This document shows positions 5,260 through 55,531 of a DNA stretch of 64,000 nt, piece by piece. The notes below the pieces were generated by a model that saw only the letters and a program-made list of their open reading frames with translations, did not search any database and was not told where the DNA came from. The DNA comes from an uncultured bacterium (lineage in GTDB: Bacteria; Fidelibacterota; Marinisomatia; Marinisomatales; UBA1611), in NCBI GenBank assembly GCA_943788175.1, contig CALSPG010000007.1, positions 128,001-192,000 on the forward strand, read 5' to 3'. Each line of letters opens with the position of its first letter. Within the stretch, counting starts at the first letter, position 1. A program made the translations under genes and the position numbers.

Positions 5260-6144
5260 CTATAGACCTAGATATAACATGGTTCTGAATGTTACACCTC
5301 TGAGAGTATATTCTTCTGAGTCTCCAATTAAATATCTACTATTAAGTTTCCAGCGACCTTGGCCTATAGTACCTTTATTAAATCCAGCACTAATTCTTAA
5401 GCCAACCCTGTCAAGAAGTTGCCATTTAACGGCAACGTACGGTTGAAAATTAAAAAATGTTCCGCTAAGGTCTGACATAACACCAGGAGCATTTGCAGCA
5501 TTAAAACCTGCAATAGGGGTTCCAGTATCATCTACAGCATAATAATACATCAGAGTAGAGTCAGTACCATCAGCATTTACTTCCCATTCTTTTGACCCGT
5601 AGGAAAAATCAAACATTTCGCCCCATTTAGGGTTAGCAGCATATTGATCGATAGATAAATTTAATCGTCCTAGTCCCATCATGGCTCCAGCAGAGATTTC
5701 AAGATCTTGAAAAACTGGCATTACGTATTCAATGGATGCGGCTCCTAAGGCAATGGTTATTTTAGCTTCAATTGATGGATTAAAATTTCCATCATAAGGC
5801 ACTTTGGTTTCATCTTGATATCCAGGCTCACCGGTATCTACATATAATTGAACATTAGTTACTGTACTAATACTTGAGCTGCCAACTCCAGCATAACTTC
5901 CGATTCTCCATTTTCCAGTCATGTGAGCGAACCCTTCTCCCCCATGCACCACAAAAGGGGTATCAAATTGATTAGAGTTTAACCCAAGGCTTTTTAGTAA
6001 GTCTGTAGCTGGGAATTTTTCGACATTTATATACATCGGACTATATCCGATGCCACCACCAAAAAAATCTGTAACTGGATATAAATCAAATTGACTATGT
6101 CCAGTAGATAGTAAAATTGTAATATATGTTAGTATTTTTTTCAC
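5260..6144 (-). CDS. Hypothetical exported protein, possible outer-membrane beta-barrel
   Basis: Likely GTG start at 6144 with GGAGAGG RBS; signal-peptide-like MKKILTYITILLSTGHSQ; Gly/aromatic alternating strands ending GVTFRTMLYLGL. Confidence 0.55.
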   Translation of the reverse strand: MKKILTYITILLSTGHSQFDLYPVTDFFGGGIGYSPMYINVEKFPATDLLKSLGLNSNQFDTPFVVHGGEGFAHMTGKWRIGSYAGVGSSSISTVTNVQLYVDTGEPGYQDETKVPYDGNFNPSIEAKITIALGAASIEYVMPVFQDLEISAGAMMGLGRLNLSIDQYAANPKWGEMFDFSYGSKEWEVNADGTDSTLMYYYAVDDTGTPIAGFNAANAPGVMSDLSGTFFNFQPYVAVKWQLLDRVGLRISAGFNKGTIGQGRWKLNSRYLIGDSEEYTLRGVTFRTMLYLGL

Positions 6145-6371
6145 AGTATAAGACCTCTCCGCACGTATTTGAAATCTAACCAATTTATGTACTATAGACT
6201 AAATACAAAAGGAATTATATATCAAATTTGATGTATAAAATGCCTAAACTAATTTTTGGGCTTTTTCTTGGAAAAAACGGTGCTTTAACCTATATTTTTT
6301 GCTAGAGTAAACGAGGTAAGGGAGTTTATTTCTATATTCTCCTGTGAAATAGACATGTTTTGACCTAAATA

Positions 6372-8828
6372 ATGGTCAACACAGAAAGTATAATTATGCG
6401 GAAAAATAATAATATTTTTGGTAACTCCGGGTATTTGCTAGTACTAGTTTTGTGCTACGAGTTTTTATCTGGCGGCCAACTAAATAGAACTAGTGGTCTC
6501 TACGATCTCGATGGTGATGGTCGTAAAGAGGTCCTTGTTATTAATAGCTCTGATAGAAGAGCATCATTGATCGAGTTTCAAGGTGAAGTGATAAGTGACA
6601 CTTTGTGGACCTTTATGCTACCGGTTGGAACTTACTTTACAGACGTTGCTGTATTAGACATTGATAAGAATGGGCAACCTGACTTAGTAGCAACTTCAAA
6701 AATTAATGCAGACAGTAATAATGATGGATGGTTATATGTATTTCAAGGGACACTAAGCGGTTTTTCAAATGAGCCACTTATTTCAGAATCATCTGGGCTC
6801 AAATTAAAAAATATTCGACCTCTTAACCTCTCAAAAGTTTATGGGCTGTCAAACTATCTTTCTGTGTCTTTTGGAACGCCAGTTCGAAAGACATTGATTT
6901 TTCAACCTCAAATACAAAATAATCGGTTAAATATTAAAAATCCTAAGATGCTTTCAGACCCTTTAATTCAAAATGGATATGGGCATATGTATTCTGGTGG
7001 ATTTAGTTCATACGGAGGTAATTATGTTGCACAATTTTCAGCGGAACTAAATACTTTAAAGGTCTCCGTTTTTAATTCGAATAATAATTTTAAGCATGTT
7101 AATACTGAAATTTTAAGCCTTGGTAAAGCTCGTGGTATTATTGGCGCGGAAGTACAGGCTTACAATAATTTGAAAAAAGGTGAAGAGGGCCTACTCATCC
7201 CTTTTAGAACCGGAGAGGTTAAAATTCTTAATTTTCAAAATGGTAAAATTAGTTTGGTAGACTCTGAATTTTCCCATGAAGAATTATTTTTAGAAATGGA
7301 AAACCCTAATAAATATGAGATCTTAGATTTAGTTAGCTCAAGAATTGAATCTGGATTTTACAATAAAACAATTACGAAAGATGATTACAGTCAGAATAGA
7401 AAAGATAAAAACGCTGGAATTAATAGAAAACCTATAGATGGGCCAACTTTAGTTGACTACCTTAATGAAGCTGGAATTGTTAAAAAGTCTAGATCTCAAG
7501 ATAAAGTTGACATTCCCAATCAAAGTGCAGATATGAATAGTAAAATATGGGCGGCAAAAGCTTCTGTAAAAGTAGAGCAAATAGATTCTACCTTATTATC
7601 ATTAACGGATTCTGTTTTTACAAACCCAATTCCAGATGAAGATAAAGAAATTGCTTTTCATAAGACTGTATTCGGGTCTTCTGACTCGGTTACTATTGCA
7701 GAAACTTGGGAAGACACACTACGAAACGTTTTAGTGCCTGAATCAATTAACATAACACAAGAAGATGAGGATGAAAAAAACATTGATCTTTACTATGTTA
7801 TGGCGATGACTCCATCAAAAGGGAGTCAAGACAGATATGTTTTTGATGGAGAGGCGCCATTTGGAATCAATGTAACACAAATTCCACCTATGGGTGAAGC
7901 AACACACTTTCAGCATAGTGTATCTGCAAATACGAATTTTTTACGTAGGGGTAACGATTATGACTTTGCTTATACTTTAAAAGAGCAAGTATCTGATAGT
8001 GTAACGACACTTACAATGGTTCATGATATGCAAACTAATATAATATTTATGTCGATTTCTCCTGAGGTTGATTCTATTTCTCAATCTTATCAACCAGAAG
8101 CATTTGATCCTAAATTATTTGAATTCCCTGATTATTTTTTCGAAGGGTTTCCTACTAGTTTGGGGATGGACTTTAAAGATAAACTTATAAAATTTTCATT
8201 TGATGATTCCGGAGATAGTGTTAATTATCAAGGTCTGTATTTATCCTCAACCACACCATCAACTCCATCTCAATCATTAGCTGTGTTTTTAAATGAGGGG
8301 ACACTTCAAGCAATTAGAGGTGAGGTAAAAGTTCGTGAAAATGGTTCAAAAAAAATAACTACTCAATTTGACATATCTGGATACTTACAGCCAGCAGCAA
8401 TGTTCTCCAGGCTTATTCAGGAAGAGTTTTCAGATTCGCTTAAAACAAACTTATTGCAAGGTGCTTATCTTGAAGAGCCTCTTTTTGGCCCAAATGGGAA
8501 GCTTCCGAAAGTATCTCATGAAAGAAGGCTCCCTGAGGCGCAATTTGACCAAAAAAATCCAAAAATTCCTGTAGATCCACTTAAAGGGATTTACCCTGAG
8601 GGTCAAGGAGTAACCACAAACTCTAAGGCGAAAACAGAGATTGCTGCACCCGATCCTCAAGGACCAGTTGATGTTCCAGCCTCTACAGACATAGAAACTT
8701 TATCTGATACTTTAAAAATGGAGAGTGCTAAAGTTGTACCAGATTCTCTAAACAGAATTAATATTGGCAACGACAATCTTCCTGAATCGGTAGACCCAGA
8801 CACTAATAATTCTGGAATTAAAAAATAA
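6372..8828 (+). CDS. Exported FG-GAP/VCBS-repeat protein with an unknown C-terminal region
   Basis: DLDGDGRKE and DIDKNGQPDL Ca-binding repeats after a hydrophobic N-terminus; the start may be the ATG at 6396. Confidence 0.65.
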   Translation: MVNTESIIMRKNNNIFGNSGYLLVLVLCYEFLSGGQLNRTSGLYDLDGDGRKEVLVINSSDRRASLIEFQGEVISDTLWTFMLPVGTYFTDVAVLDIDKNGQPDLVATSKINADSNNDGWLYVFQGTLSGFSNEPLISESSGLKLKNIRPLNLSKVYGLSNYLSVSFGTPVRKTLIFQPQIQNNRLNIKNPKMLSDPLIQNGYGHMYSGGFSSYGGNYVAQFSAELNTLKVSVFNSNNNFKHVNTEILSLGKARGIIGAEVQAYNNLKKGEEGLLIPFRTGEVKILNFQNGKISLVDSEFSHEELFLEMENPNKYEILDLVSSRIESGFYNKTITKDDYSQNRKDKNAGINRKPIDGPTLVDYLNEAGIVKKSRSQDKVDIPNQSADMNSKIWAAKASVKVEQIDSTLLSLTDSVFTNPIPDEDKEIAFHKTVFGSSDSVTIAETWEDTLRNVLVPESINITQEDEDEKNIDLYYVMAMTPSKGSQDRYVFDGEAPFGINVTQIPPMGEATHFQHSVSANTNFLRRGNDYDFAYTLKEQVSDSVTTLTMVHDMQTNIIFMSISPEVDSISQSYQPEAFDPKLFEFPDYFFEGFPTSLGMDFKDKLIKFSFDDSGDSVNYQGLYLSSTTPSTPSQSLAVFLNEGTLQAIRGEVKVRENGSKKITTQFDISGYLQPAAMFSRLIQEEFSDSLKTNLLQGAYLEEPLFGPNGKLPKVSHERRLPEAQFDQKNPKIPVDPLKGIYPEGQGVTTNSKAKTEIAAPDPQGPVDVPASTDIETLSDTLKMESAKVVPDSLNRINIGNDNLPESVDPDTNNSGIKK

Positions 8829-28755: not shown

Positions 28756-29433
28756 TTGAATAAAGTTTCTGCTATAATTCTTGCTGCTGGTTCTGGCACT
28801 AGATTTGGAGAGAAAAAACAATTTAAAAATCTTAACGGTAACCCAATATGGACTTACTCTTTAAAAACTTTTGTTCAATCAAAATATGTTGGAGAAGTGA
28901 TACTGGTTATTCCTCAAGAGTTTTTATCAAAAATTCAGAGTTCTCAAACGATTAAAAAATTTTCTAATCAAATTGATATTAAAATCGTTAAAGGTGGTAA
29001 GTCGAGACAAGATTCAGTAATGAACGGCTTAAGCGTCGTCAAAAAAAAATACAATCTTGTTTGTATTCACGACGCAGCTAGGCCTTTTGTTAGATCTTCA
29101 TATATAAAAAAAACTATTGAAGCTTGTACTGAGTTTGATAGTTCAATTGTAGCAGTTGCCGCTACAGATACTGTAAAAAAAGTTGAAAATGAGATAATTA
29201 AAAAGACCATAGATAGAAATTATATTTGGATGGCTCAGACACCACAAACTTTTCAAAAAGAAAAACTTTTAAAAGCATTTAAATTATTTTCTCAAGTCAA
29301 TATTACTGATGAAAGTATGATAATGGAATTAGCTGGTTTTTCAACAAAAATTATAGAAGGAGACCCAAATAACTTAAAGATTACGAAAGCTTTGGACTGG
29401 GAATTAGCAAAATTAATTGAGGGTAAAATATAA
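28756..29433 (+). CDS. ispD: 2-C-methyl-D-erythritol 4-phosphate cytidylyltransferase
   Basis: TTG start; LAAGSGTRF..KKQF, GG.SRQDSV, IHDAARP, QTPQ, NLKIT. Confidence 0.93.
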   Translation: MNKVSAIILAAGSGTRFGEKKQFKNLNGNPIWTYSLKTFVQSKYVGEVILVIPQEFLSKIQSSQTIKKFSNQIDIKIVKGGKSRQDSVMNGLSVVKKKYNLVCIHDAARPFVRSSYIKKTIEACTEFDSSIVAVAATDTVKKVENEIIKKTIDRNYIWMAQTPQTFQKEKLLKAFKLFSQVNITDESMIMELAGFSTKIIEGDPNNLKITKALDWELAKLIEGKI

Positions 29434-29435
29434 AA

Positions 29436-29924
29436 ATGGTACGGTCAGGAATAGGGTTTGATGTTCATCAATTAAAAAACGGGTTTGATTTGTACGTAGG
29501 TGGAATAAAAATTAAATCTGATCTTGGGTCTTTGGGCCATTCTGATGGAGACGCTCTAATTCATGCTATTGTTGATGCCTTGCTTGGGGCGGCATGTCTT
29601 GGCGATATAGGTAAATATTTTCCTAGTAATCAGAAAAAGTGGAAAGGCGTTGAAAGTGAATTATTTTTATTTGAAACAAAGAAGCTTTTATCGCGTAATG
29701 GGTTTCAAATATCAAATATCGACAGTACAATCATATTACAAAAGCCAAGAATAGAAAACTATCTTCTTGAAATTCGAAAAAATATATCCAGCATATTAGA
29801 CATTGATTATAAAGTCGTTTCTATTAAAGCCACTACTACTGATTATCTTGGATATGTTGGAAAATCAAAAGGTTGGAGTGTAATGTCAATTGCCACAATC
29901 AATGATTCAAATGAAATCAATTAA
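29436..29924 (+). CDS. ispF: 2-C-methyl-D-erythritol 2,4-cyclodiphosphate synthase
   Basis: GIGFDVH, GHSDGDALIHA, GDIG, KATTT. Confidence 0.95.
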   Translation: MVRSGIGFDVHQLKNGFDLYVGGIKIKSDLGSLGHSDGDALIHAIVDALLGAACLGDIGKYFPSNQKKWKGVESELFLFETKKLLSRNGFQISNIDSTIILQKPRIENYLLEIRKNISSILDIDYKVVSIKATTTDYLGYVGKSKGWSVMSIATINDSNEIN

Positions 29925-30756
29925 AATAAATTCTTATGCCAAAGTAAATATTGGGCTTAAAATTTTAAATAAAAGAAGTGATGGTTATCACAATATTAGT
30001 ACTGTTTTTCAAGAAATTGATTTGTTTGATAGTATAACTATTTCAAAGTTTAATGGCCCTCTTAGATTTAGTTCAAATGTAGATTGGTTACAAAATGACC
30101 AAAATAATCTTTGTGTAATAGCATATAATTATATCAAAAATCTGTATAAGATTGGTGGCGCAAATATCGTTTTAAAAAAAAATATTTCAAGAGGTAGCGG
30201 CCTTGGAAGCGGCTCGTCAAATGCAGCGACTATAATGAAAGGGCTTCGAGAAATTTATAATTTGAAGGTAACAGATAACGAACTTATAAAAATTGGTTCG
30301 AGAATAGGCGCTGATGTACCATTTTTTATTAATGGCTTTACTCAGGTTGGTGAAGGTATTGGCGAAAAGTTAACAATTATAAATTCTTCGATGGATGCCC
30401 AATATTTAATTGTTACACCTGACATATCAATTGATACGAAATGGGCCTATTCGCAATACAAAAATAATTTGGATAACTGTTCTTCACCTACTAAGTTTTC
30501 AGACTTAATTCGTGGCAAGTCAATTAATCTTGACATGCTAAAGTTTTTTGAGAATGATTTTGAATCTGTTGTTTTTCCAACATATCCAGAGATTGGTGCA
30601 ATAAAAAACAAACTACTTGCTCTAGGAGCAAAGTTTGCCAGTCTGTCGGGTTCTGGCTCGACTGTGTATGGGATTTTCGATGATGATGCTAATATTAATA
30701 AAGCATTTTCTCATTTTTTTCCAAGACACAAGACATTTATCGCACATCCTGTTTAA
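29911..30756 (+). CDS. ispE: 4-diphosphocytidyl-2-C-methyl-D-erythritol kinase
   Basis: Likely ATG at 29911; AKVNIGL, DGYH, GSGLGSGSSNAA, GADVPFF, NDFE, SGSGS. Confidence 0.93.
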   Translation: MKSIKINSYAKVNIGLKILNKRSDGYHNISTVFQEIDLFDSITISKFNGPLRFSSNVDWLQNDQNNLCVIAYNYIKNLYKIGGANIVLKKNISRGSGLGSGSSNAATIMKGLREIYNLKVTDNELIKIGSRIGADVPFFINGFTQVGEGIGEKLTIINSSMDAQYLIVTPDISIDTKWAYSQYKNNLDNCSSPTKFSDLIRGKSINLDMLKFFENDFESVVFPTYPEIGAIKNKLLALGAKFASLSGSGSTVYGIFDDDANINKAFSHFFPRHKTFIAHPV

Positions 30757-48633: not shown

Positions 48634-50436
48634 TTAACTTTTAAAAAACGTTTTTCTTCGAGTGTTTATTTTACTTTCAAGTTCAACAATTTTTTCTTTT
48701 TCTATTGTGGTCTGATCTTCTTTTGATTTTAGCTTATCTAGCTCTAGTCTTAAAAATTGAACATCCCGCTCAAGTTTTTCGAGTCTACCTTTCATTTGCT
48801 TAGATAAAACCTTCTTAAAATCATCTATTTTATCACTATCTGGTGTATAGTATATATTTGTATTTCCCCGATCCGTATCTTCCCAGAATGTAGGTCCGCT
48901 GAATCTAATTCTGTTATAAAGACCTTCCATAAGTTTAAGATATGTTTGATTATCAAAAAATGCTAAATCATCAAGGACATCAGAAACGATTGTTTCAGCA
49001 AAATTTATATTATTAATTTTTATAAAATGTAAAGCAAGCCCAATTTGTAAAACTCTTACTCCGTTGTTTACGCTTTGATCTAGCTCTTCTTTTGAATAGT
49101 CTGGCGGGTTATCAAGCTGTAAAATTTCTTTTAACAGGTGTTCTTGAAGTTGATTATCCCAAGTTTCTTCCGATATTAAAATAGTAATCTTTTTTAGTTC
49201 AGCTGTTAGCACATCTACAATGAAATATAATGAAGGGTTTTTAGCGGCCTGTTTATAAATCTCATTACTGTAGAACTTAAAATAAAAATAGCCCTGTTTT
49301 AATAAGTCCTCTTTATTATGATCAACATATCCTTTTAAAAGCGCAGAATAATGGAAGGCAAGGTTGTATAAATTTCTAGGTTCATTATTACGGACAGCGT
49401 GTTTAATAGCAAATCGCATAAATGTATTAAACCTTATGTTAATATCAACTATCAAGCTATTTTGTTTTAAATCTAAGGCTAGTAACCCAATTGATGAGAC
49501 TTCACTTGCGATTAGAGATGCGAGCTCATATTCTCCGTTTTCCATTTTTCGGATATAAGCATTACCCATCATTTTAAATGCTTTAACTTCGTAAAAGGTT
49601 CTTCTGTCTTCTAAATCTTTATATTGATGTTCAACATATGTTCGGAAAGTGGGATTATTTCTAATTGTGTCTGTGGCAGCAAAAAAACGAGAGTCATAAA
49701 AACTTTTATTTCGCATGTATACTCTTACGGTGTCACCAACTCTACGTATTATTTCAGTTTGTGCTTCTTTAAAAGAAATGTATTCTAATAAATCATCAAA
49801 CTGATCAATAGTAGACATCAATTGATATTGGTAGTGTTCAATATTTTTAATATTGTCCATTGATAAGTGTACAGATTTATTTTTCAACCTATTTATATCT
49901 TCAATATTTAGTGTGTATAATTTTTTGATTACATTGTCTGTTTTAGAGTAGAGGAGTATATAAAAAATATAAGGTAGCGATAGCATAGATGAAGCTGGCA
50001 GATAAACGTATGTATTTAGCATCACGCTGGATAGCCTTTCCATAGGTCCGAAATAATACATTATCACTGTAGCGTGAATTGATGCTAAAATTAAAAACCA
50101 AATAAAAATAAGACTTACCCAATCTTTAACAAATAAATCCATCAGTTTAGGAGTAGACTCAGCTGCAATTGCTATTACAATGATTAAGGTACCTAGCACT
50201 GTGGCTAAAACTCCGCCCCAAATTTCTGGTGCAAAGGTGAGGTCTATTGCATCGTGGGTTTCTTTGCCTAAACCAAATAAGTTTTCTAAGAGGGATATAA
50301 TATCAGAGTAAAAATAATGAAACGTGAAGTCGCTGCCAAGGACTACGAAAAAAACGAAAAAGAGAGAGGCTAATGATCTATTTTTATTAATTAGCCCCAA
50401 AATTTTACTAAATAATATGGTCAGTTTGTCATTCAT
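48634..50436 (-). CDS. Hypothetical membrane protein (about 4 N-terminal TM helices and a large helical soluble domain), possibly DUF2254-like
   Basis: 600-aa ORF with a hydrophobic N-terminal third; FWEDTDRG near the C-terminus; family call is tentative. Confidence 0.55.
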   Translation of the reverse strand: MNDKLTILFSKILGLINKNRSLASLFFVFFVVLGSDFTFHYFYSDIISLLENLFGLGKETHDAIDLTFAPEIWGGVLATVLGTLIIVIAIAAESTPKLMDLFVKDWVSLIFIWFLILASIHATVIMYYFGPMERLSSVMLNTYVYLPASSMLSLPYIFYILLYSKTDNVIKKLYTLNIEDINRLKNKSVHLSMDNIKNIEHYQYQLMSTIDQFDDLLEYISFKEAQTEIIRRVGDTVRVYMRNKSFYDSRFFAATDTIRNNPTFRTYVEHQYKDLEDRRTFYEVKAFKMMGNAYIRKMENGEYELASLIASEVSSIGLLALDLKQNSLIVDINIRFNTFMRFAIKHAVRNNEPRNLYNLAFHYSALLKGYVDHNKEDLLKQGYFYFKFYSNEIYKQAAKNPSLYFIVDVLTAELKKITILISEETWDNQLQEHLLKEILQLDNPPDYSKEELDQSVNNGVRVLQIGLALHFIKINNINFAETIVSDVLDDLAFFDNQTYLKLMEGLYNRIRFSGPTFWEDTDRGNTNIYYTPDSDKIDDFKKVLSKQMKGRLEKLERDVQFLRLELDKLKSKEDQTTIEKEKIVELESKINTRRKTFFKS

Positions 50437-50684
50437 GATTTGTCAAGTACTAAAAGATCTTGGCTAGAAAATACGATTAAGAGAATAATTTTTCAATATT
50501 GAAGAATAGTATTCAATACTTTATGTTAAATAGGTATTAAGAAAAATTTTAAAAAATTGAAATCAATCAGTTTTTATTGACCTTCACACGAACAGATGAT
50601 AACTTCTTGCAAGCTCTTTTAAGTTTATAAGTTCATTGACTTAAGTATGAGCAATAAATGTAAATTAATTATAACGAGGTGTTT

Positions 50685-51116
50685 ATGTCAGATTGGACAA
50701 ATAGTCATGATTTAGTATACGCATTTGTTTGTGTTTCTTTTCTCGCTGACGGAGAAGTTGATGAGTCTGAGAAAGAAGCAATGCGTGGGAATGTTAAAGT
50801 TATGCTTCCTGATATGGGGGATGACGAGTATCACCAGGTTGAAAAAGAAGTTATTGATAAGTTCATTGCATTAGGTGATGAAACTTCTCGTTTCAGCCAA
50901 TATGGTTCTTCTCTTAGCGCAATCAAAGAAATGTTTTCATCTGATGATGATCGGTATAAGGTTATAAAAAACCTTGCTTATATTGCTAGAGCAGATCAAT
51001 TCATTCATGAAAATGAAATGAAAATGGTTGAGCAAGCGGTTACTGATTTAGATATGGAAGATAAAGTTAGCTTAGTTAAAACGGAGTCAACTCTTTTCGT
51101 TGATTTCAAATCGTAG
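50685..51116 (+). CDS. TerB-like (tellurite-resistance TerB fold) protein
   Basis: Two acidic motifs ADGEVDESE and IARADQFIHENE; GAGGT RBS before the ATG at 50685. Confidence 0.75.
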   Translation: MSDWTNSHDLVYAFVCVSFLADGEVDESEKEAMRGNVKVMLPDMGDDEYHQVEKEVIDKFIALGDETSRFSQYGSSLSAIKEMFSSDDDRYKVIKNLAYIARADQFIHENEMKMVEQAVTDLDMEDKVSLVKTESTLFVDFKS

Positions 51117-51137
51117 CCTTCTAAATAAAGTATACTA

Positions 51138-51175
51138 ATTAGTGCCCGATTTTAATTATCGGGCACTAATATTTT
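51138..51175 (+). terminator. Probable intrinsic terminator hairpin after the TerB-like gene
   Basis: Perfect 13-bp inverted repeat ATTAGTGCCCGAT-7nt-ATCGGGCACTAAT followed by ATTTT. Confidence 0.7.
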
Positions 51176-51199
51176 GAAGATTAAATAAGGTAAAAAATA

Positions 51200-51352
51200 A
51201 TGTCGGAAAAAAGAACGCACAGTGACGATAGAAGAAATGATAATAGAAGATTAGAGGATCGCAGGAAAGAATCCATGTCAGTAGAAGAAGAGAGAAGAGA
51301 GAGTAATAGAAGAGCTGACGAACGCCGGTCTAGAGAAGAGCGACGCTCGTAA
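51200..51352 (+). CDS. Small 50-aa (D/E/N)RR-repeat protein, not in the supplied ORF track
   Basis: Hand translation: MSEKRTHSDDRRNDNRRLEDRRKESMSVEEERRESNRRADERRSREERRS*; AAGG upstream; fills an otherwise empty spacer. Confidence 0.7.
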   Translation: MSEKRTHSDDRRNDNRRLEDRRKESMSVEEERRESNRRADERRSREERRS

Positions 51353-51367
51353 CAACTTAATTCCCTT

Positions 51368-52042
51368 TTAGCAGTATACTCTTTCCATACCAGATAAAAA
51401 GTTATTTAGCGAAGATAAAGCTAAATCAATAGATTCTAGAGCTTCTTCTTTTTTCAAATCAGTATCACAAACCTCACCCAACAATTCTTTAATTATTTGT
51501 CTATGAATAATATCAGCAGACTTGTGCACTTCAAAAAACTTTAGTGTTTCATCGCCTTCTACTGCGCCATAATATCTTTTTAATCCATCAATTTTATTTT
51601 CAGCTATTTCAGGTATCATAGACTCATAGCAATAAAGCGCACTAAACCCTTTATGATACTTCTCGTCTTTCGATAATTTCATAAAATTAGTTACTAGCTC
51701 TTCAGTCTCTTTGATAGCAGTGGTCTTTTTTACGCTATCCCTATCTTTGCCCATGCCTTCAGCAAAACGCATCCATAATTCAGGATGGTTTTCTTCACCA
51801 CGTTCTTCATCAATAAGATTTTCAAGAATCTCTTGTCTTACATTAATATTATCACAATTTGAATGAATTGATGATAGGTATCTTGGGAAGGCAGCTACAT
51901 GCTTAAAATATTGAGCTGCATATTCTTGGATCACAGATTTTTTTAATTCTCCAGCATTCCAGGCCTTATAGAATGAATGATTAAGCAGGTGATGTTTTTC
52001 AATTTTTCTTTCAATCGTATTTAGAAAGTCAGATTTGTTCAT
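51368..52042 (-). CDS. CADD/CT610-family heme-oxygenase-like dimetal oxidase (putative self-sacrificing pABA synthase)
   Basis: HLLNHSFY.AW..GEL, EYA.QY, FPRYLS.IHS.C, NLIDEE...NH..LW, YE..IP.IA..KI.GL, FF.VH..AD..H. Confidence 0.88.
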   Translation of the reverse strand: MNKSDFLNTIERKIEKHHLLNHSFYKAWNAGELKKSVIQEYAAQYFKHVAAFPRYLSSIHSNCDNINVRQEILENLIDEERGEENHPELWMRFAEGMGKDRDSVKKTTAIKETEELVTNFMKLSKDEKYHKGFSALYCYESMIPEIAENKIDGLKRYYGAVEGDETLKFFEVHKSADIIHRQIIKELLGEVCDTDLKKEEALESIDLALSSLNNFLSGMERVYC

Positions 52043-52075
52043 AGTTTAATTTACTCCGAAGTTTAGTTTATTGAT

Positions 52076-53356
52076 TTAACCAAGCCATATTCCGGCACAG
52101 AAAAATAACCCCGTTAAGAAGTGTAATCCAATAGTTCCTGCATTAGCTGGTTGTAATAATCTGTTATCATAATGTTTGTAGAGGGTTTTTATTGTGAAAA
52201 TACTGTATACAGATGTTATTAGTGAAATTAGTGATAGTGTAGGAAATGTAGTTGGTCTTGTCCAAGCTAAAGCTATGATGCTAACAAATGCACCAACAAC
52301 AAGTGCGACATAGCCTATTCTAGCTTTTTCTGGTCCAAAAACTACTACCAGATTATTTTTCCCTGTTGCTTTATCACCATCATGATCTGGGAATTGATTT
52401 ACAAAAACGATTGCTGCAACTAAAAGTCCAATCGGAATTCCAGCAAGAATAGCATCGTTTATGTGTATCATTTCTCCGCCAGTCTGGACTAAAAAACTCC
52501 CTGCAACCATTAATGGTCCAAAGTTTAGCCCAATCAATAGCTCGCCCAGACCTTTTCGTGATGCAAATCGGAATGGTGGTGCAGTATAAAAGAAACCTGA
52601 TAAAAATCCAATTATTCCTAAGTAAAGAATGCTAATCCCAGCTTTATATATAAGTGGTATTCCTATTAAGGCACTAAGAGCAAATGTTACTATAGCAACG
52701 TTCAGCATGCCTTTGGGTGTTATCAGACCCATTTGAATGCTTCTGCTTCCACCAGAAAACGGAATCATATAATTATAGTTTGCTTCATCAGTACCACTAA
52801 TATGATCATAATAGTCATTAGATGTATTGGTACCAATATGTAGAAAAAACCCTCCTAACATTGTCAGTGTAAAATAAAACCAATCAATATCTACGAATTT
52901 ACTTGCGACTGCAGCTCCTAATAATATGGGAACGATAGTTGCTGTCAAAAATGGTAACCTCATTATTACCATCCAACTAAATAGTTTTGTTGCAAAACTT
53001 ATTTTTGGTCGAACATCCGCTGGCGTTTTATCATGAAGAGGAGATGTGACACCGCAATATCCAATATGGTTTCCACCACTGTCTTTTGTTGGCGTTATTT
53101 TTATTTTACATGGCATTTCATGACCATCTTTGTGTAGAAAAACTGTGTTTCCTTCCCAGGCGCCTTTTTCAACTGATTCAGCTAACCAATTTACAACATG
53201 ACCCAAAACTATTTGACCAGCACTAAAATCACTAACGCGGCCTTTACCAATTATTTCATCTTCTGTGTATCCGAACATATCTTGTGCGCCAGAACTAAAT
53301 GTCTCAATTTTTCCATCTAAATCACACGTGATTACACTTTTTAAATTTTTACTCAT
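52076..53356 (-). CDS. menA: MenA-family (DHNA) prenyltransferase with an N-terminal PAS domain
   Basis: Residues 1-105 PAS-like (DLDGKI..FS.GA..MFGY...EIIGK...HKDG); then RLPFL, NDYYD..SGTD, GGSR, YTAPP...GLGE, NQFPD..GD..TGK. Confidence 0.82.
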   Translation of the reverse strand: MSKNLKSVITCDLDGKIETFSSGAQDMFGYTEDEIIGKGRVSDFSAGQIVLGHVVNWLAESVEKGAWEGNTVFLHKDGHEMPCKIKITPTKDSGGNHIGYCGVTSPLHDKTPADVRPKISFATKLFSWMVIMRLPFLTATIVPILLGAAVASKFVDIDWFYFTLTMLGGFFLHIGTNTSNDYYDHISGTDEANYNYMIPFSGGSRSIQMGLITPKGMLNVAIVTFALSALIGIPLIYKAGISILYLGIIGFLSGFFYTAPPFRFASRKGLGELLIGLNFGPLMVAGSFLVQTGGEMIHINDAILAGIPIGLLVAAIVFVNQFPDHDGDKATGKNNLVVVFGPEKARIGYVALVVGAFVSIIALAWTRPTTFPTLSLISLITSVYSIFTIKTLYKHYDNRLLQPANAGTIGLHFLTGLFFCAGIWLG

Positions 53357-53444
53357 ATCTTAACTATTCCTTCTATTATACGAATTTATAATAATATAAA
53401 TTTAGCTATCATAAATTTCTAAGAACGAAACAAATTTTAAAAAA

Positions 53445-54752
53445 ATGGGCACACCTGCAAAAAAAATAGCTTTTCATACATTGGGATGTAAGCTCAATTT
53501 TTCTGAAACCTCTTCTCTATCCAGAGACTCCTTAAGATATGGTTATGAGAATGTAAATTCAAAAGAATTTGCAGATATATATGTTTTCAACACTTGTTCT
53601 GTAACAGAAAATGCAAATAAGGAAACAAAAAAATTAATAAGAAGAAGTAAACGCATTAACCCTAAGGCTTTCATTGCTTTGATAGGGTGTTATGCCCAAT
53701 TAAAGCCAGAAGAACTAATAAATATTGATGATGTAAATATGGTTTTAGGTACTGCTGAAAAATTTGAGTTATTAAATCATTTAGACAAAGTAAAGATTTC
53801 AAATGATATAAAGGTTGTAATGAATAAAGATATAACTGAGATTAACTCATTCAATCCTTCGTTCTCGGGAGATGACAGAACTAGGGCTTTTTTAAAAGTT
53901 CAAGATGGCTGTGATTATAGCTGTACGTTTTGTACAATTCCTATGGCTAGAGGAAAAAGTAGAAGCGCTTCAATCAGCCAAACAGTTAATCTTGCAAAGA
54001 CAATAACAAAATCTAAAACAAAAGAAATAGTTCTTACTGGAGTAAACATAGGAGATTTTGGTGTATATAATAATGAATCATTTTTTGAACTAATAAAAGA
54101 AATAGATTTACAAGTAGACATCGATAGAGTTCGAATTTCATCTATTGAGCCAAACCTACTGTCAAATGGAATAATTGAATTTTGTTTTAATTCAGAAAAA
54201 TTTATGCCACATTTTCATATTCCACTGCAATCAGGATCAGATAAAATTCTTAAATCAATGAAGAGAAGATATAAAGTTGAAGACTTTAAAAGCCGTATTA
54301 ATACAATTAAAAATTTAGATAGTGATGCCTGCATAGGCGTAGATGTAATTGTTGGTTACCCATCAGAAACTGAAGAAGATTTTATCGAAACATATGAGTT
54401 TTTAAAAAATCAAGATGTTTCTTATTTACATGTTTTCACCTATTCTGAAAGAGAAAATACTAAAGCCATAGATTTTAAACCTGCAGTACCTTTTAAAGAA
54501 AGATTTAACAGATCTAAATTATTACGTGAGCTTTCAGATCAAAAAAAAGCTCAATTTTATAAAAAATCGGTTGGGGATATTAGGCCCTTACTTGTTGAAA
54601 ATAATAAAAATGGTATCTTATTTGGATATACTGATAACTATGTAAAAATAAAGATTAATGCAGCAAGTTCTATTGAAAACACTATTCAAATGGTAAATAT
54701 TTTAGATTTTAGAGGAGAATACATGTTTGGTGAAATTATAGCCGCAGGTTAA
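53445..54752 (+). CDS. mtaB: tRNA t6A37 methylthiotransferase
   Basis: HTLGCKLNFSE, NTCSVT, GCYAQ, KVQDGCDYSCTFC radical SAM motif, RISSIEP, HVFTYSER. Confidence 0.92.
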   Translation: MGTPAKKIAFHTLGCKLNFSETSSLSRDSLRYGYENVNSKEFADIYVFNTCSVTENANKETKKLIRRSKRINPKAFIALIGCYAQLKPEELINIDDVNMVLGTAEKFELLNHLDKVKISNDIKVVMNKDITEINSFNPSFSGDDRTRAFLKVQDGCDYSCTFCTIPMARGKSRSASISQTVNLAKTITKSKTKEIVLTGVNIGDFGVYNNESFFELIKEIDLQVDIDRVRISSIEPNLLSNGIIEFCFNSEKFMPHFHIPLQSGSDKILKSMKRRYKVEDFKSRINTIKNLDSDACIGVDVIVGYPSETEEDFIETYEFLKNQDVSYLHVFTYSERENTKAIDFKPAVPFKERFNRSKLLRELSDQKKAQFYKKSVGDIRPLLVENNKNGILFGYTDNYVKIKINAASSIENTIQMVNILDFRGEYMFGEIIAAG

Positions 54753-55531
54753 TTTTTTTCAATTTCAGATAAAATTTCATTCCAGAACTTAATTCTGGAT
54801 TTCATTACATCTTTACCACATTTAATGCATTCCTTCCATTTTATTTCATCATCCCCGCAAATCTCTTTAATCATCTTTAATGCTAATGGTGTATGCTCAT
54901 CTTCGTCTAAACCAATGTGCCTATCCAAGTAGTAGATAAATGACTTAAGGTTTGCACTAGAATTATTATTTAAATCAGAGACTAATTCTCGAAACATATC
55001 AGGAATTATTTCCTCCCTACCCAAAGTAAAAATTGTTGCTGTTAAGTGGGGTAAACCTGATTCTATATATTTAAAAGTATCTAGAACAAAATTTTCAGCT
55101 GGTTTAGGTGCATTGGAAGTTATCAAAGAAGAGTGTACACCCTTAGAATCAAGTCCTTTTAAAAAGTTTTCTATGCTTGTTGTATTTGCACCGGCTTCTT
55201 TCATAGCATGATAATATATTTCAAAATGACTTAGGTGTTGTCCATAACGATCAATATCTGATTCCTCTGCAAGAACTATTTCATTTAATAGCCTTGATAA
55301 GTTGCCATTACTTTTCGGTCTCCAAGGTATTTCTATGCAGGTAAATTCTCTTTGAAGTGATTTAAGCACTGACATAAAGTCCCACACAGCGTAAACATGA
55401 TTTTGCATAAAAATGTGTAAGTGTTTTTCTGTTTTTATAGCACTATATAAAGGGTGCGTTTTTAGTGCAGTTCTTTCTTGTTGGGTTTCATCAAGAATGT
55501 TTAACAGATTGTTTTTCAGTAGTCTGAACAT
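54749..55531 (-). CDS. DUF3050 family heme-oxygenase-like protein
   Basis: HPLY, FM.NHVYAVWDFMS, NEIVLAEESD, SHFE.Y, GRE..IP.MF, YLDRHI.LD...H. Confidence 0.85.
   Translation of the reverse strand: MFRLLKNNLLNILDETQQERTALKTHPLYSAIKTEKHLHIFMQNHVYAVWDFMSVLKSLQREFTCIEIPWRPKSNGNLSRLLNEIVLAEESDIDRYGQHLSHFEIYYHAMKEAGANTTSIENFLKGLDSKGVHSSLITSNAPKPAENFVLDTFKYIESGLPHLTATIFTLGREEIIPDMFRELVSDLNNNSSANLKSFIYYLDRHIGLDEDEHTPLALKMIKEICGDDEIKWKECIKCGKDVMKSRIKFWNEILSEIEKN

Follow-up and report, generated by a model that had tools for sequence, protein, structure and literature searches.

Why should a gene for a self-sacrificing 4-aminobenzoate (pABA) synthase stand directly behind a gene for a menaquinone-type prenyltransferase? 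The pair lies on the reverse strand of a stretch of 64,000 nucleotides, referred to as the window, from an uncultured bacterium of the SAR406 group (Fidelibacterota; Marinisomatia; Marinisomatales; UBA1611). The window covers positions 128001-192000 of contig C7 (CALSPG010000007.1) in a genome of 2.27 Mb on 12 contigs (G000, GCA_943788175.1), 92 % complete with 1.35 % contamination. The upstream gene codes for a UbiA-family membrane protein with an N-terminal PAS domain, hereafter PAS-MenA, the downstream gene for a member of the CADD family of pABA synthases. An earlier note on this DNA had proposed that CADD supplies the aromatic acceptor of the prenyltransferase, or else that two oxygen-linked cofactor steps are co-regulated. 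Comparison across the family and the phylum suggests another answer: these are probably two cofactor genes of separate pathways which were made one transcription unit in a single lineage.

What the earlier note had read from the DNA held up: two genes on the same strand with a 33-nt gap, a GGAG before CADD and flanking genes on the opposite strand, the identity of both proteins, the conservation of the active-site residues of CADD, and the lack of folate genes nearby. CADD gave 263.9 bits on TIGR04305, above the cut-off of 200, and was single-copy in a genome-wide search (sole locus 263.5 bits). It aligned to solved 4-aminobenzoate synthases, namely 9pj4 (E 1.6e-48), CT610 of Chlamydia trachomatis (1rcw, E 1e-42) and 8va9 (E 1.8e-42). 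In the alignment with CT610, Y25 in HHLLNHSFYKAW pairs with Tyr27 (HMLEHTFYVKW) and K150 in ENKIDGL with Lys152 (EKIRGL). The residues E79, H86, E140, H173, D177 and H180, which we take to be the Glu/His/Glu/His/Asp/His dimetal ligands, match the aligned CT610 residues identically. According to PMC9522330, Tyr27 of CT610 is cleaved to yield pABA (peptide HMLEHTFYVK) and a Y27F variant is inactive, a functional role of Lys152 is described alongside Tyr27, and the reaction requires O2. The CADD protein of this genome is new but otherwise a typical representative of a known family.

Folate synthesis is the expected destination of its product. The source genome encodes chorismate synthase and, on contigs other than C7, dihydropteroate synthase (FolP: PF00809, 286.3 bits; TIGR01496, 323.8 bits), HPPK (FolK, 114.7 bits) and FolC (362.4 bits, cut-off 162.65). 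A chorismate-binding enzyme was not found in it (0 matches to PF00425, the controls being positive in 14 of 14 genomes), and tblastn of the genome with PabA, PabB and PabC of a sister genus gave no match better than E 1e-8. CADD scored above the cut-off in 30 of the 54 genomes that make up the family, and a PabB-class chorismate-binding gene (about 354-416 aa, 248-281 bits) was present in 15. No clear case carried both; G163 (58 % complete) had CADD plus one ambiguous 474-aa chorismate-binding match. Nine genomes, 55-93 % complete, had neither. In G172 and G156 the PabB-class gene had pabB as its best model (302-311 bits, cut-off 328); it stood in a pabABC operon, between a PabA-type amidotransferase gene and a class-IV aminotransferase gene. 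The alternation of CADD with the PabB-class gene, together with folate genes in the absence of PabABC, therefore points to CADD as the source of pABA for folate. This is the pattern expected if CADD, with its predicted pABA-making activity, replaces PabABC by non-orthologous displacement: it would turn its own tyrosine into pABA in a single turnover that requires O2, and this pABA would feed FolK, FolP and FolC in place of the missing PabABC. No folate-biosynthesis gene was found in the window by Pfam scans of its 59 open reading frames (ORFs) of at least 100 aa. CADD without folate neighbours is normal in this phylum, no folate gene adjoining it in 9 of 9 annotated contexts.

The proposal of a common pathway, in which pABA or another tyrosine-derived ring made by CADD is prenylated by PAS-MenA in an undescribed prenyl-aminobenzoate or quinone route, could draw on several facts. 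Some UbiA-family enzymes, e.g. yeast Coq2, accept pABA. The predicted lack of a supply of 1,4-dihydroxy-2-naphthoate (DHNA) was confirmed in the source genome, as no chorismate-binding enzyme, MenB, MenD or MqnA/D was found, and a supply of 1,4-dihydroxy-6-naphthoate was not found either. MenG was not found in this genome, so its product would not be ordinary menaquinone. The two genes form an operon-like unit in ten genomes, bridged by contigs from RNA libraries. The distribution of the genes speaks against the proposal. Both occurred in 27 family genomes from nine genera; they were adjacent, on the same strand and with CADD downstream, in ten of these (all eight of genus g1, to which the source genome belongs, and both of genus g72), and on different contigs in the other 17, from seven other genera. 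In a sample of 151 genomes of the phylum, CADD was present in 16, of which 14 lie outside the family; 13 of the 14 also had a MenA-like gene, in no case near CADD. Conversely, PAS-MenA occurred without CADD in 12 family genomes and additionally in G067, G055 and G146. Two of the latter, G067 and G146 (96-97 % complete), had no pabB-like match at E 1e-40 either, and the pabB-like search in G055 gave one match only, of 503 aa and thus TrpE-sized. A dependence of PAS-MenA on CADD, or on pABA at all, is therefore unlikely. Moreover, CADD alternates with pabABC as a folate enzyme should, a single-turnover enzyme would be an expensive way to supply the ring of a bulk membrane quinone, and no benzoquinone-finishing UbiE-type methyltransferase was found in the source genome, UbiD/X, UbiG and UbiH-type genes not having been searched for. 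The earlier note had expected a common pathway to be contradicted by loss of the adjacency along with a complete men pathway; the adjacency was indeed not conserved, whereas a complete men pathway was not present. Altogether, a pathway from CADD to the prenyltransferase is not supported, and we regard it as highly improbable.

The gene order indicates how the pair may have arisen. In all six loci examined from other genera, CADD keeps on one side the genes for the TerB-like protein, a 600-750-aa protein, a 187-aa protein and a potassium channel (G137, G160 and G183 by Pfam; G162, G188 and G158 by the order of ORFs). The slot on its other side, between CADD and mtaB, varies: it is empty in G160 and G183, holds genes for an AsnC regulator and GlnII in G137 and, judged by ORF sizes, in G162, G188 and G158, and holds PAS-MenA in g1 and g72. 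The g72 locus has the order of the source genome, i.e., GcvP, MtaB, PAS-MenA, CADD, TerB. Elsewhere in the genome stands the PAS-MenA gene of G137, G156 and G153, in G137 ahead of LexA, ImuB and DnaE2. This synteny around a variable slot therefore argues for a single origin of the operon, by insertion of PAS-MenA upstream of a resident CADD, and the insertion between mtaB and CADD would have taken place in the common ancestor of the two genera. As the adjacency is a single evolutionary event, no statistical case can be made that it exceeds chance. The operon is probably a recent by-product of gene order in these two genera, possibly with an oxygen-linked co-expression.

An adaptive linkage without a shared pathway was considered as well, in which an O2-requiring pABA synthase is tied to a respiratory-quinone enzyme with an O2- or redox-sensing PAS domain, and the two would be produced together in the presence of oxygen. 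Oxygen, redox state and light are common signals for PAS domains, and the arrangement was kept in 10 of 10 genomes of the two genera. The organism has an aerobic respiratory chain, and CADD needs O2 according to PMC9522330. A PAS domain borne by the protein would regulate the enzyme, not the transcription of the downstream gene, and the two genes are apart in seven other genera. Furthermore, the sole solved match for this PAS domain was a generic sensory-box PAS (E 2.9e-5), and a ligand-binding signature was not assignable from the profile and structure matches. Co-regulation as the reason for the linkage is thus unlikely.

Several neighbours of the two genes in other lineages were observed. 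A gene of the PF04199 'putative cyclase' family, arylformamidase-like and with a weak match to TIGR03035, immediately precedes PAS-MenA, in the same orientation, in G137 and G156 (L028, 5175-5930; L031, 5171-5932), and a gene of this type, by ORF size, precedes PAS-MenA in G153 (L032, 7341-8099). In G067, a genome without MenB, MenD and MqnA/D, a MenI-like hotdog thioesterase gene (L029, 5548-5991) ends 9 nt before PAS-MenA; it reached 127 bits on the DHNA-CoA hydrolase model, the cut-off being 185. Neither the cyclase nor the thioesterase was accepted as a universal partner of PAS-MenA, tblastn having revealed no homologue in the source genome. An orthologous GNAT acetyltransferase gene (73-74 % identity between families) belongs to a conserved block with cyclophilin, phosphoribosyltransferase and orotidine-5'-phosphate decarboxylase genes (L024 of G099, 5926-7327; L030 of G055, 5989-8067; source genome, C10:31921-32460). 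It directly adjoins CADD in G099, where CADD precedes it, and lies directly upstream of PAS-MenA in G055 and G146. That CADD and PAS-MenA each stand beside this housekeeping gene in different lineages is taken as coincidence unless shown otherwise.

What PAS-MenA does has to be seen against the respiratory chain. The source organism needs a quinone for a quinol-dependent aerobic chain: sdhA and sdhB are located in the window, genes for a Rieske protein, cytochrome b, a multihaem cytochrome c, COX1-4, CtaA and CtaB on contig C5, and two polyprenyl synthases are encoded in the genome. Three UbiA-family genes were present. One codes for heme O synthase (286.9 bits) and lies in the cox cluster, one for a GGGP-type prenyltransferase-like protein and adjoins prmC; PAS-MenA is therefore the only candidate for a quinone prenyltransferase. 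Its PAS part (about aa 7-103) was recognised by PAS_9 (PF13426, 44.6 bits, cut-off 27; match aa 7-101) and by the PAS model (25.1 bits, cut-off 22.6), its prenyltransferase part (about aa 125-424) by UbiA (PF01040, 110.2 bits, cut-off 34.2; match aa 141-394). The nearest solved structure was UBIAD1 (8djk, E 1.2e-11). The motifs NDYYD (aa 180-184) and DHDGD (aa 324-328), the Asp-rich motifs of the UbiA family, align with those of UBIAD1.

The genes for making a naphthoquinone head group were not found in the source genome by either known route. There were 0 matches to PF00425 for MenF and 0 matches to PF02621 for MqnA/D, and MenD was not found. The best match for MenB was an enoyl-CoA hydratase (156.6 bits, cut-off 342.7), the best match for MenG/UbiE had 53.1 bits (cut-off 158.35). 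A tblastn search with the complete men cluster of G170, a member of the family with the order MenG, MenI-like, MenF, MenD, MenB, MenA, MenC/E, revealed no MenF, MenD or MenI; PAS-MenA was recovered at 28 % identity, and the other matches were distant paralogues only (an enoyl-CoA hydratase, an enolase-superfamily gene and a generic methyltransferase). Adjoining MenB-like and MenC-like genes on contig C2 (93-96 kb) were rejected as a divergent men module, being an enoyl-CoA hydratase gene and DgcA/DgcN-type genes. Within the family, MenB was above the cut-off in 5 of 54 genomes; a short classical MenA adjoined it in four of the five, and the fifth, G180, had no MenA match. None of the 39 PAS-MenA genomes of the family had MenB. 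MenG was present in eight of the 54 genomes and in only two of the 39 (G161, G165). MqnA/D matches were confined to one of the 54 genomes, G154, which is also one of the 39. They are two in number (219 and 141 bits) and share one small contig (C95:911-3003) of this 88 %-complete assembly, and may be a contamination or a real remnant of the futalosine pathway.

PAS-MenA belongs to a group of domain-fused enzymes. In an IQ-TREE tree of 20 UbiA domains, the classical MenA of the family was split from all other UbiA domains (SH-aLRT 100). The seven PAS-fused proteins grouped together (SH-aLRT 89) beside a sister clade (SH-aLRT 99) whose members bear another N-terminal domain or have lost it. This domain is PNPOx_N (PF01243, 30.5-45.3 bits, cut-off 28.1) in G024, G134, G033, G012, G099 and G131, and hhalign identified the unannotated N-terminal extension of the G037 protein (family f21) as a diverged version of PNPOx_N (97.5 %, E 5e-12). 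PAS and PNPOx domains showed no relation in hhalign (0.3 % probability); occurring at the same position, the PAS domain has therefore replaced a flavin-type domain. Fusions with PNPOx were found in Fidelibacterota, Calditrichaceae, KSB1, marine Anaerolineales, metagenome-assembled genomes (MAGs) of Gammaproteobacteria including an Olavius symbiont, and Asgard archaea. In public databases both fusions carry labels such as 'UbiA family prenyltransferase' or MenA only, and our literature searches found no paper on a fusion of PAS or PNPOx with MenA, nor anything on Fidelibacter combined with quinone or on quinones among the matches for Marinimicrobia and menaquinone.

The lack of head-group genes extends to the relatives. 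In nine families (f2, f3, f4, f8, f14, f15, f21, f23, f25; 55 genomes) a MenA-like gene was present in 49 genomes, with matches that in most were 36-45 % identical to the clade (outside this range: G069, G061, G144, G085, G129). MenB and MqnA/D were found in 0 of these 55 genomes. All five genomes scanned for MenD stayed under its cut-off, among them the single-contig PNPOx-MenA genomes G134 and G071, in which the same absences hold. A MenG/UbiE-family gene (200.6 bits, cut-off 158.35) directly follows PNPOx-MenA in G134, G099 and G131, and such a gene follows at 9 of 80 clade-2 MenA loci from named genomes. In these 80 loci plus 12 from the phylum, a conserved head-group gene beside clade-2 MenA was not found, MenG/UbiE being the only recurrent one. 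Other neighbours were lineage-specific: a transhydrogenase, an aminotransferase with HisS, a DinG-like helicase, DPP-IV and cytochrome c. Three loci deserve mention in their own right. In the streamlined genome G024 (genus g5, about 1.1 Mb) PNPOx-MenA stands directly after ftsH, folP and cdaA (L046, 4362-7463), a MenA-like gene near a folate gene, yet CADD is 190 kb off. A dihaem cytochrome c gene precedes PNPOx-MenA in a gammaproteobacterial MAG (CP070646.1; L083) and in the Olavius algarvensis Gamma 3 symbiont (L087), followed in the symbiont by genes for a NosZ-propeller protein and another cytochrome c. A MenA-like enzyme thus lies among respiratory genes in a class whose usual quinone is ubiquinone.

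How might such an enzyme obtain its ring? Most likely, PAS-MenA would add a polyprenyl chain to a head group of the naphthoquinol type. Neither the Men nor the futalosine route would provide this ring, and the cell might take it up or make it in an unknown way. As MenG is missing, an unmethylated quinone resembling demethylmenaquinone would result, which may serve succinate dehydrogenase, the Rieske/cytochrome b complex and the aa3 oxidase. The active site of UbiA-family enzymes is located on the cytoplasmic side. The PAS domain, predicted to be on this side too, may modulate the enzyme or supply the ring substrate, in parallel to a possible role of the flavin domain in the sister enzymes. A bolder view takes the PAS- and PNPOx-fused enzymes as markers of a third, undescribed biosynthetic route to the naphthoquinone head group, neither Men nor futalosine, with a part for the N-terminal flavin or sensor domain, which might for instance reduce or gate the ring substrate, and with CADD standing outside; SAR406/Fidelibacterota, Calditrichaceae, KSB1, marine Anaerolineales and others would be its users. 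We hold this to be conceivable, if doubtful.

Several points weigh against our account of two separate pathways. The genomes are MAGs, so an absent gene is to be read as one not found. The PabB class was confirmed by a family scan in two of the 15 genomes only (G172, G156). The operon-like layout was kept in all ten genomes of g1 and g72, and given this and the RNA contigs, some functional or regulatory link between CADD and PAS-MenA may still exist. The best named NCBIfam models for PAS-MenA were all MenA, each under its cut-off: TIGR00751 with 100.8 bits (cut-off 102.15; the classical MenA of the same family reached 272.2), NF004751 with 159.3 (264) and NF004749 with 133.7 (277). Its identity to this classical MenA was only 28 % in tblastn. 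Because no head-group source was identified for PAS-MenA in the source genome, its designation as a MenA-like enzyme acting on a naphthoquinol follows from family resemblance only. The low scores and the lack of a head-group pathway and of MenG could also mean that PAS-MenA is not a quinone enzyme, and prenylates a lipid, pigment or cofactor instead, with complete quinones being taken up or an unrecognised carrier in use; PAS-MenA has relatives in Gammaproteobacteria and Asgard archaea, groups in which menaquinone need not be the main quinone. On the other side, the best named matches were MenA or UBIAD1 throughout, some proteins of its clade do exceed the MenA cut-off (G037, 121.5 bits; G045, 113.3 bits), and the sister PNPOx forms lie directly upstream of MenG/UbiE at the loci given above. 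A role outside quinone synthesis is thus distinctly unlikely, and the quinone-type prenyltransferase remains the preferred reading.

The features of the locus are compiled in the table.

Features of the gene pair and its surroundings, with positions in the window.
Feature	Position	Strand	Basis or context
CADD-family self-sacrificing 4-aminobenzoate (pABA) synthase, 224 aa	51368..52042	-	TIGR04305, PDB matches, residues
Intergenic spacer, 33 nt, GGAG at 52057-52054	52043..52075	-	direct sequence reading
PAS-fused MenA-like (UbiA-family) membrane prenyltransferase, 426 aa	52076..53356	-	PF13426 + PF01040
PAS-MenA/mtaB divergent intergenic region, 88 bp, likely promoter region of the two-gene unit	53357..53444	.	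inferred
TerB-like gene (PF05099, 38.8 bits)	50679-51116	+	flank beyond CADD
MtaB (TIGR01579, 407.5 bits, cut-off 357)	53445-54752	+	flank beyond PAS-MenA

PAS-MenA ends with a TAA at 52078-52076, CADD starts with the ATG at 52042, and the GGAG stands 11 nt ahead of this ATG. Between the two genes there is no other ORF, and a scan of 51000-53600 detected no terminator-like site in the spacer; three such sites were present in the scanned region (mean 1.1 in shuffled sequences), all within ORFs. The divergent region upstream of PAS-MenA is the putative promoter region. Weak sigma-70-like matches on the reverse strand, at 53461-53434 and at 53421-53393, each agreed at 9 of 12 positions, and the promoter scan showed no enrichment, with 13 sites compared with a mean of 10.1 in shuffled sequences. 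The junction of the two genes was spanned by assembled RNA-library contigs in 4 of 4 metatranscriptome runs from three studies, e.g., 51157-53667 and 51582-52375; such contigs cannot prove a single transcript, a carry-over of DNA being possible, and differences in contig depth cannot rank CADD against PAS-MenA. They are compatible with a co-transcription of PAS-MenA and CADD and lend it weak support. The stretch was contained in 20 of 24 listed sequencing runs, 18 of these 20 labelled marine metagenome, and close protein relatives carry the names 'Candidatus Neomarinimicrobiota' or TMED marine bins.

Beyond CADD, the family-wide order is potassium channel, 187-aa protein, 600-aa membrane protein, TerB-like protein and CADD. 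The 600-aa membrane protein (48634-50436, reverse strand) had no Pfam or NCBIfam match, and counterparts of 712-751 aa are present in L016, L017, L020 and L027. About 1.4 kb upstream of PAS-MenA, across mtaB, a DUF3050 protein (PF11251, 308.7 bits; 9vwb, E 2.1e-56) is encoded at 54749-55531 on the reverse strand, overlapping the end of gcvP. DUF3050 presumably belongs to the heme-oxygenase-like clan, and the protein would then be the second of this type near CADD. By ORF sizes the gene has the same place in the g1 genomes G194 and G191 and is lacking there in g72. The methylerythritol phosphate pathway genes ispD, ispF and an ispE-like GHMP kinase gene are clustered at 28756-30756 on the forward strand, about 21 kb away; their role is the supply of isoprenoid precursors, and nothing evident ties them to the pair.

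Taken apart, the two genes tell of different things. CADD presents a textbook displacement of PabABC by a self-sacrificing pABA synthase in an abundant ocean lineage. PAS-MenA represents a large and so far unstudied clade of MenA-like fusion enzymes, which are the only quinone-type prenyltransferases in aerobic, quinol-dependent bacteria that lack both known menaquinone head-group pathways. The clade offers a concrete, clonable handle on whether SAR406 and similar uncultured groups salvage the quinone ring from seawater or have an unknown route to it. Whichever holds would matter for growing them in culture and for metabolic dependencies in the ocean.

Among known systems, CADD is closest to CT610 of Chlamydia trachomatis and the homologue of Nitrosomonas europaea, with which it shares the family model, the heme-oxygenase-like fold family, the conserved residues, and a genome in which the folate pathway is present and pabABC was not found. 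It differs from these in that the gene is not clustered with folate genes and that its activity, and the use of Fe/Mn or Fe/Fe as its metals, are putative. With MenA (TIGR00751/PRK06080) and human UBIAD1, PAS-MenA shares the UbiA fold and both Asp-rich motifs. Unlike MenA, it scores under every MenA cut-off, falls into a separate clade (SH-aLRT 100), has an N-terminal PAS domain and is encoded in a genome in which no DHNA pathway was found. The PNPOx-MenA fusions form the sister UbiA clade, carry their N-terminal cytoplasmic extra domain in the same position, and likewise occur in genomes without MenB, MenD or MqnA/D, but have an FMN-type split barrel (PF01243) instead of PAS and are often followed by MenG/UbiE. 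Gloeobacter violaceus and Anthocerotibacter make menaquinone or phylloquinone without a recognisable pathway, and a 2026 survey of bacterial quinone pathways lists genomes with neither menaquinone pathway and infers an alternative one from Gloeobacter (PMC13386864). Like Gloeobacter, the source organism uses a quinone without either known menaquinone route in its genome; the quinone of Gloeobacter has been measured, whereas the SAR406 case is known from genes alone. A model for salvage is provided by MenA-only bacteria that depend on exogenous DHNA, such as oral Porphyromonas, in which a MenA-type enzyme is kept while the head-group steps are missing (PMC9704088, PMC12502741). Those bacteria are host-associated anaerobes with an ordinary MenA, whereas the source organism is a free-living marine aerobe with a PAS-fused enzyme.

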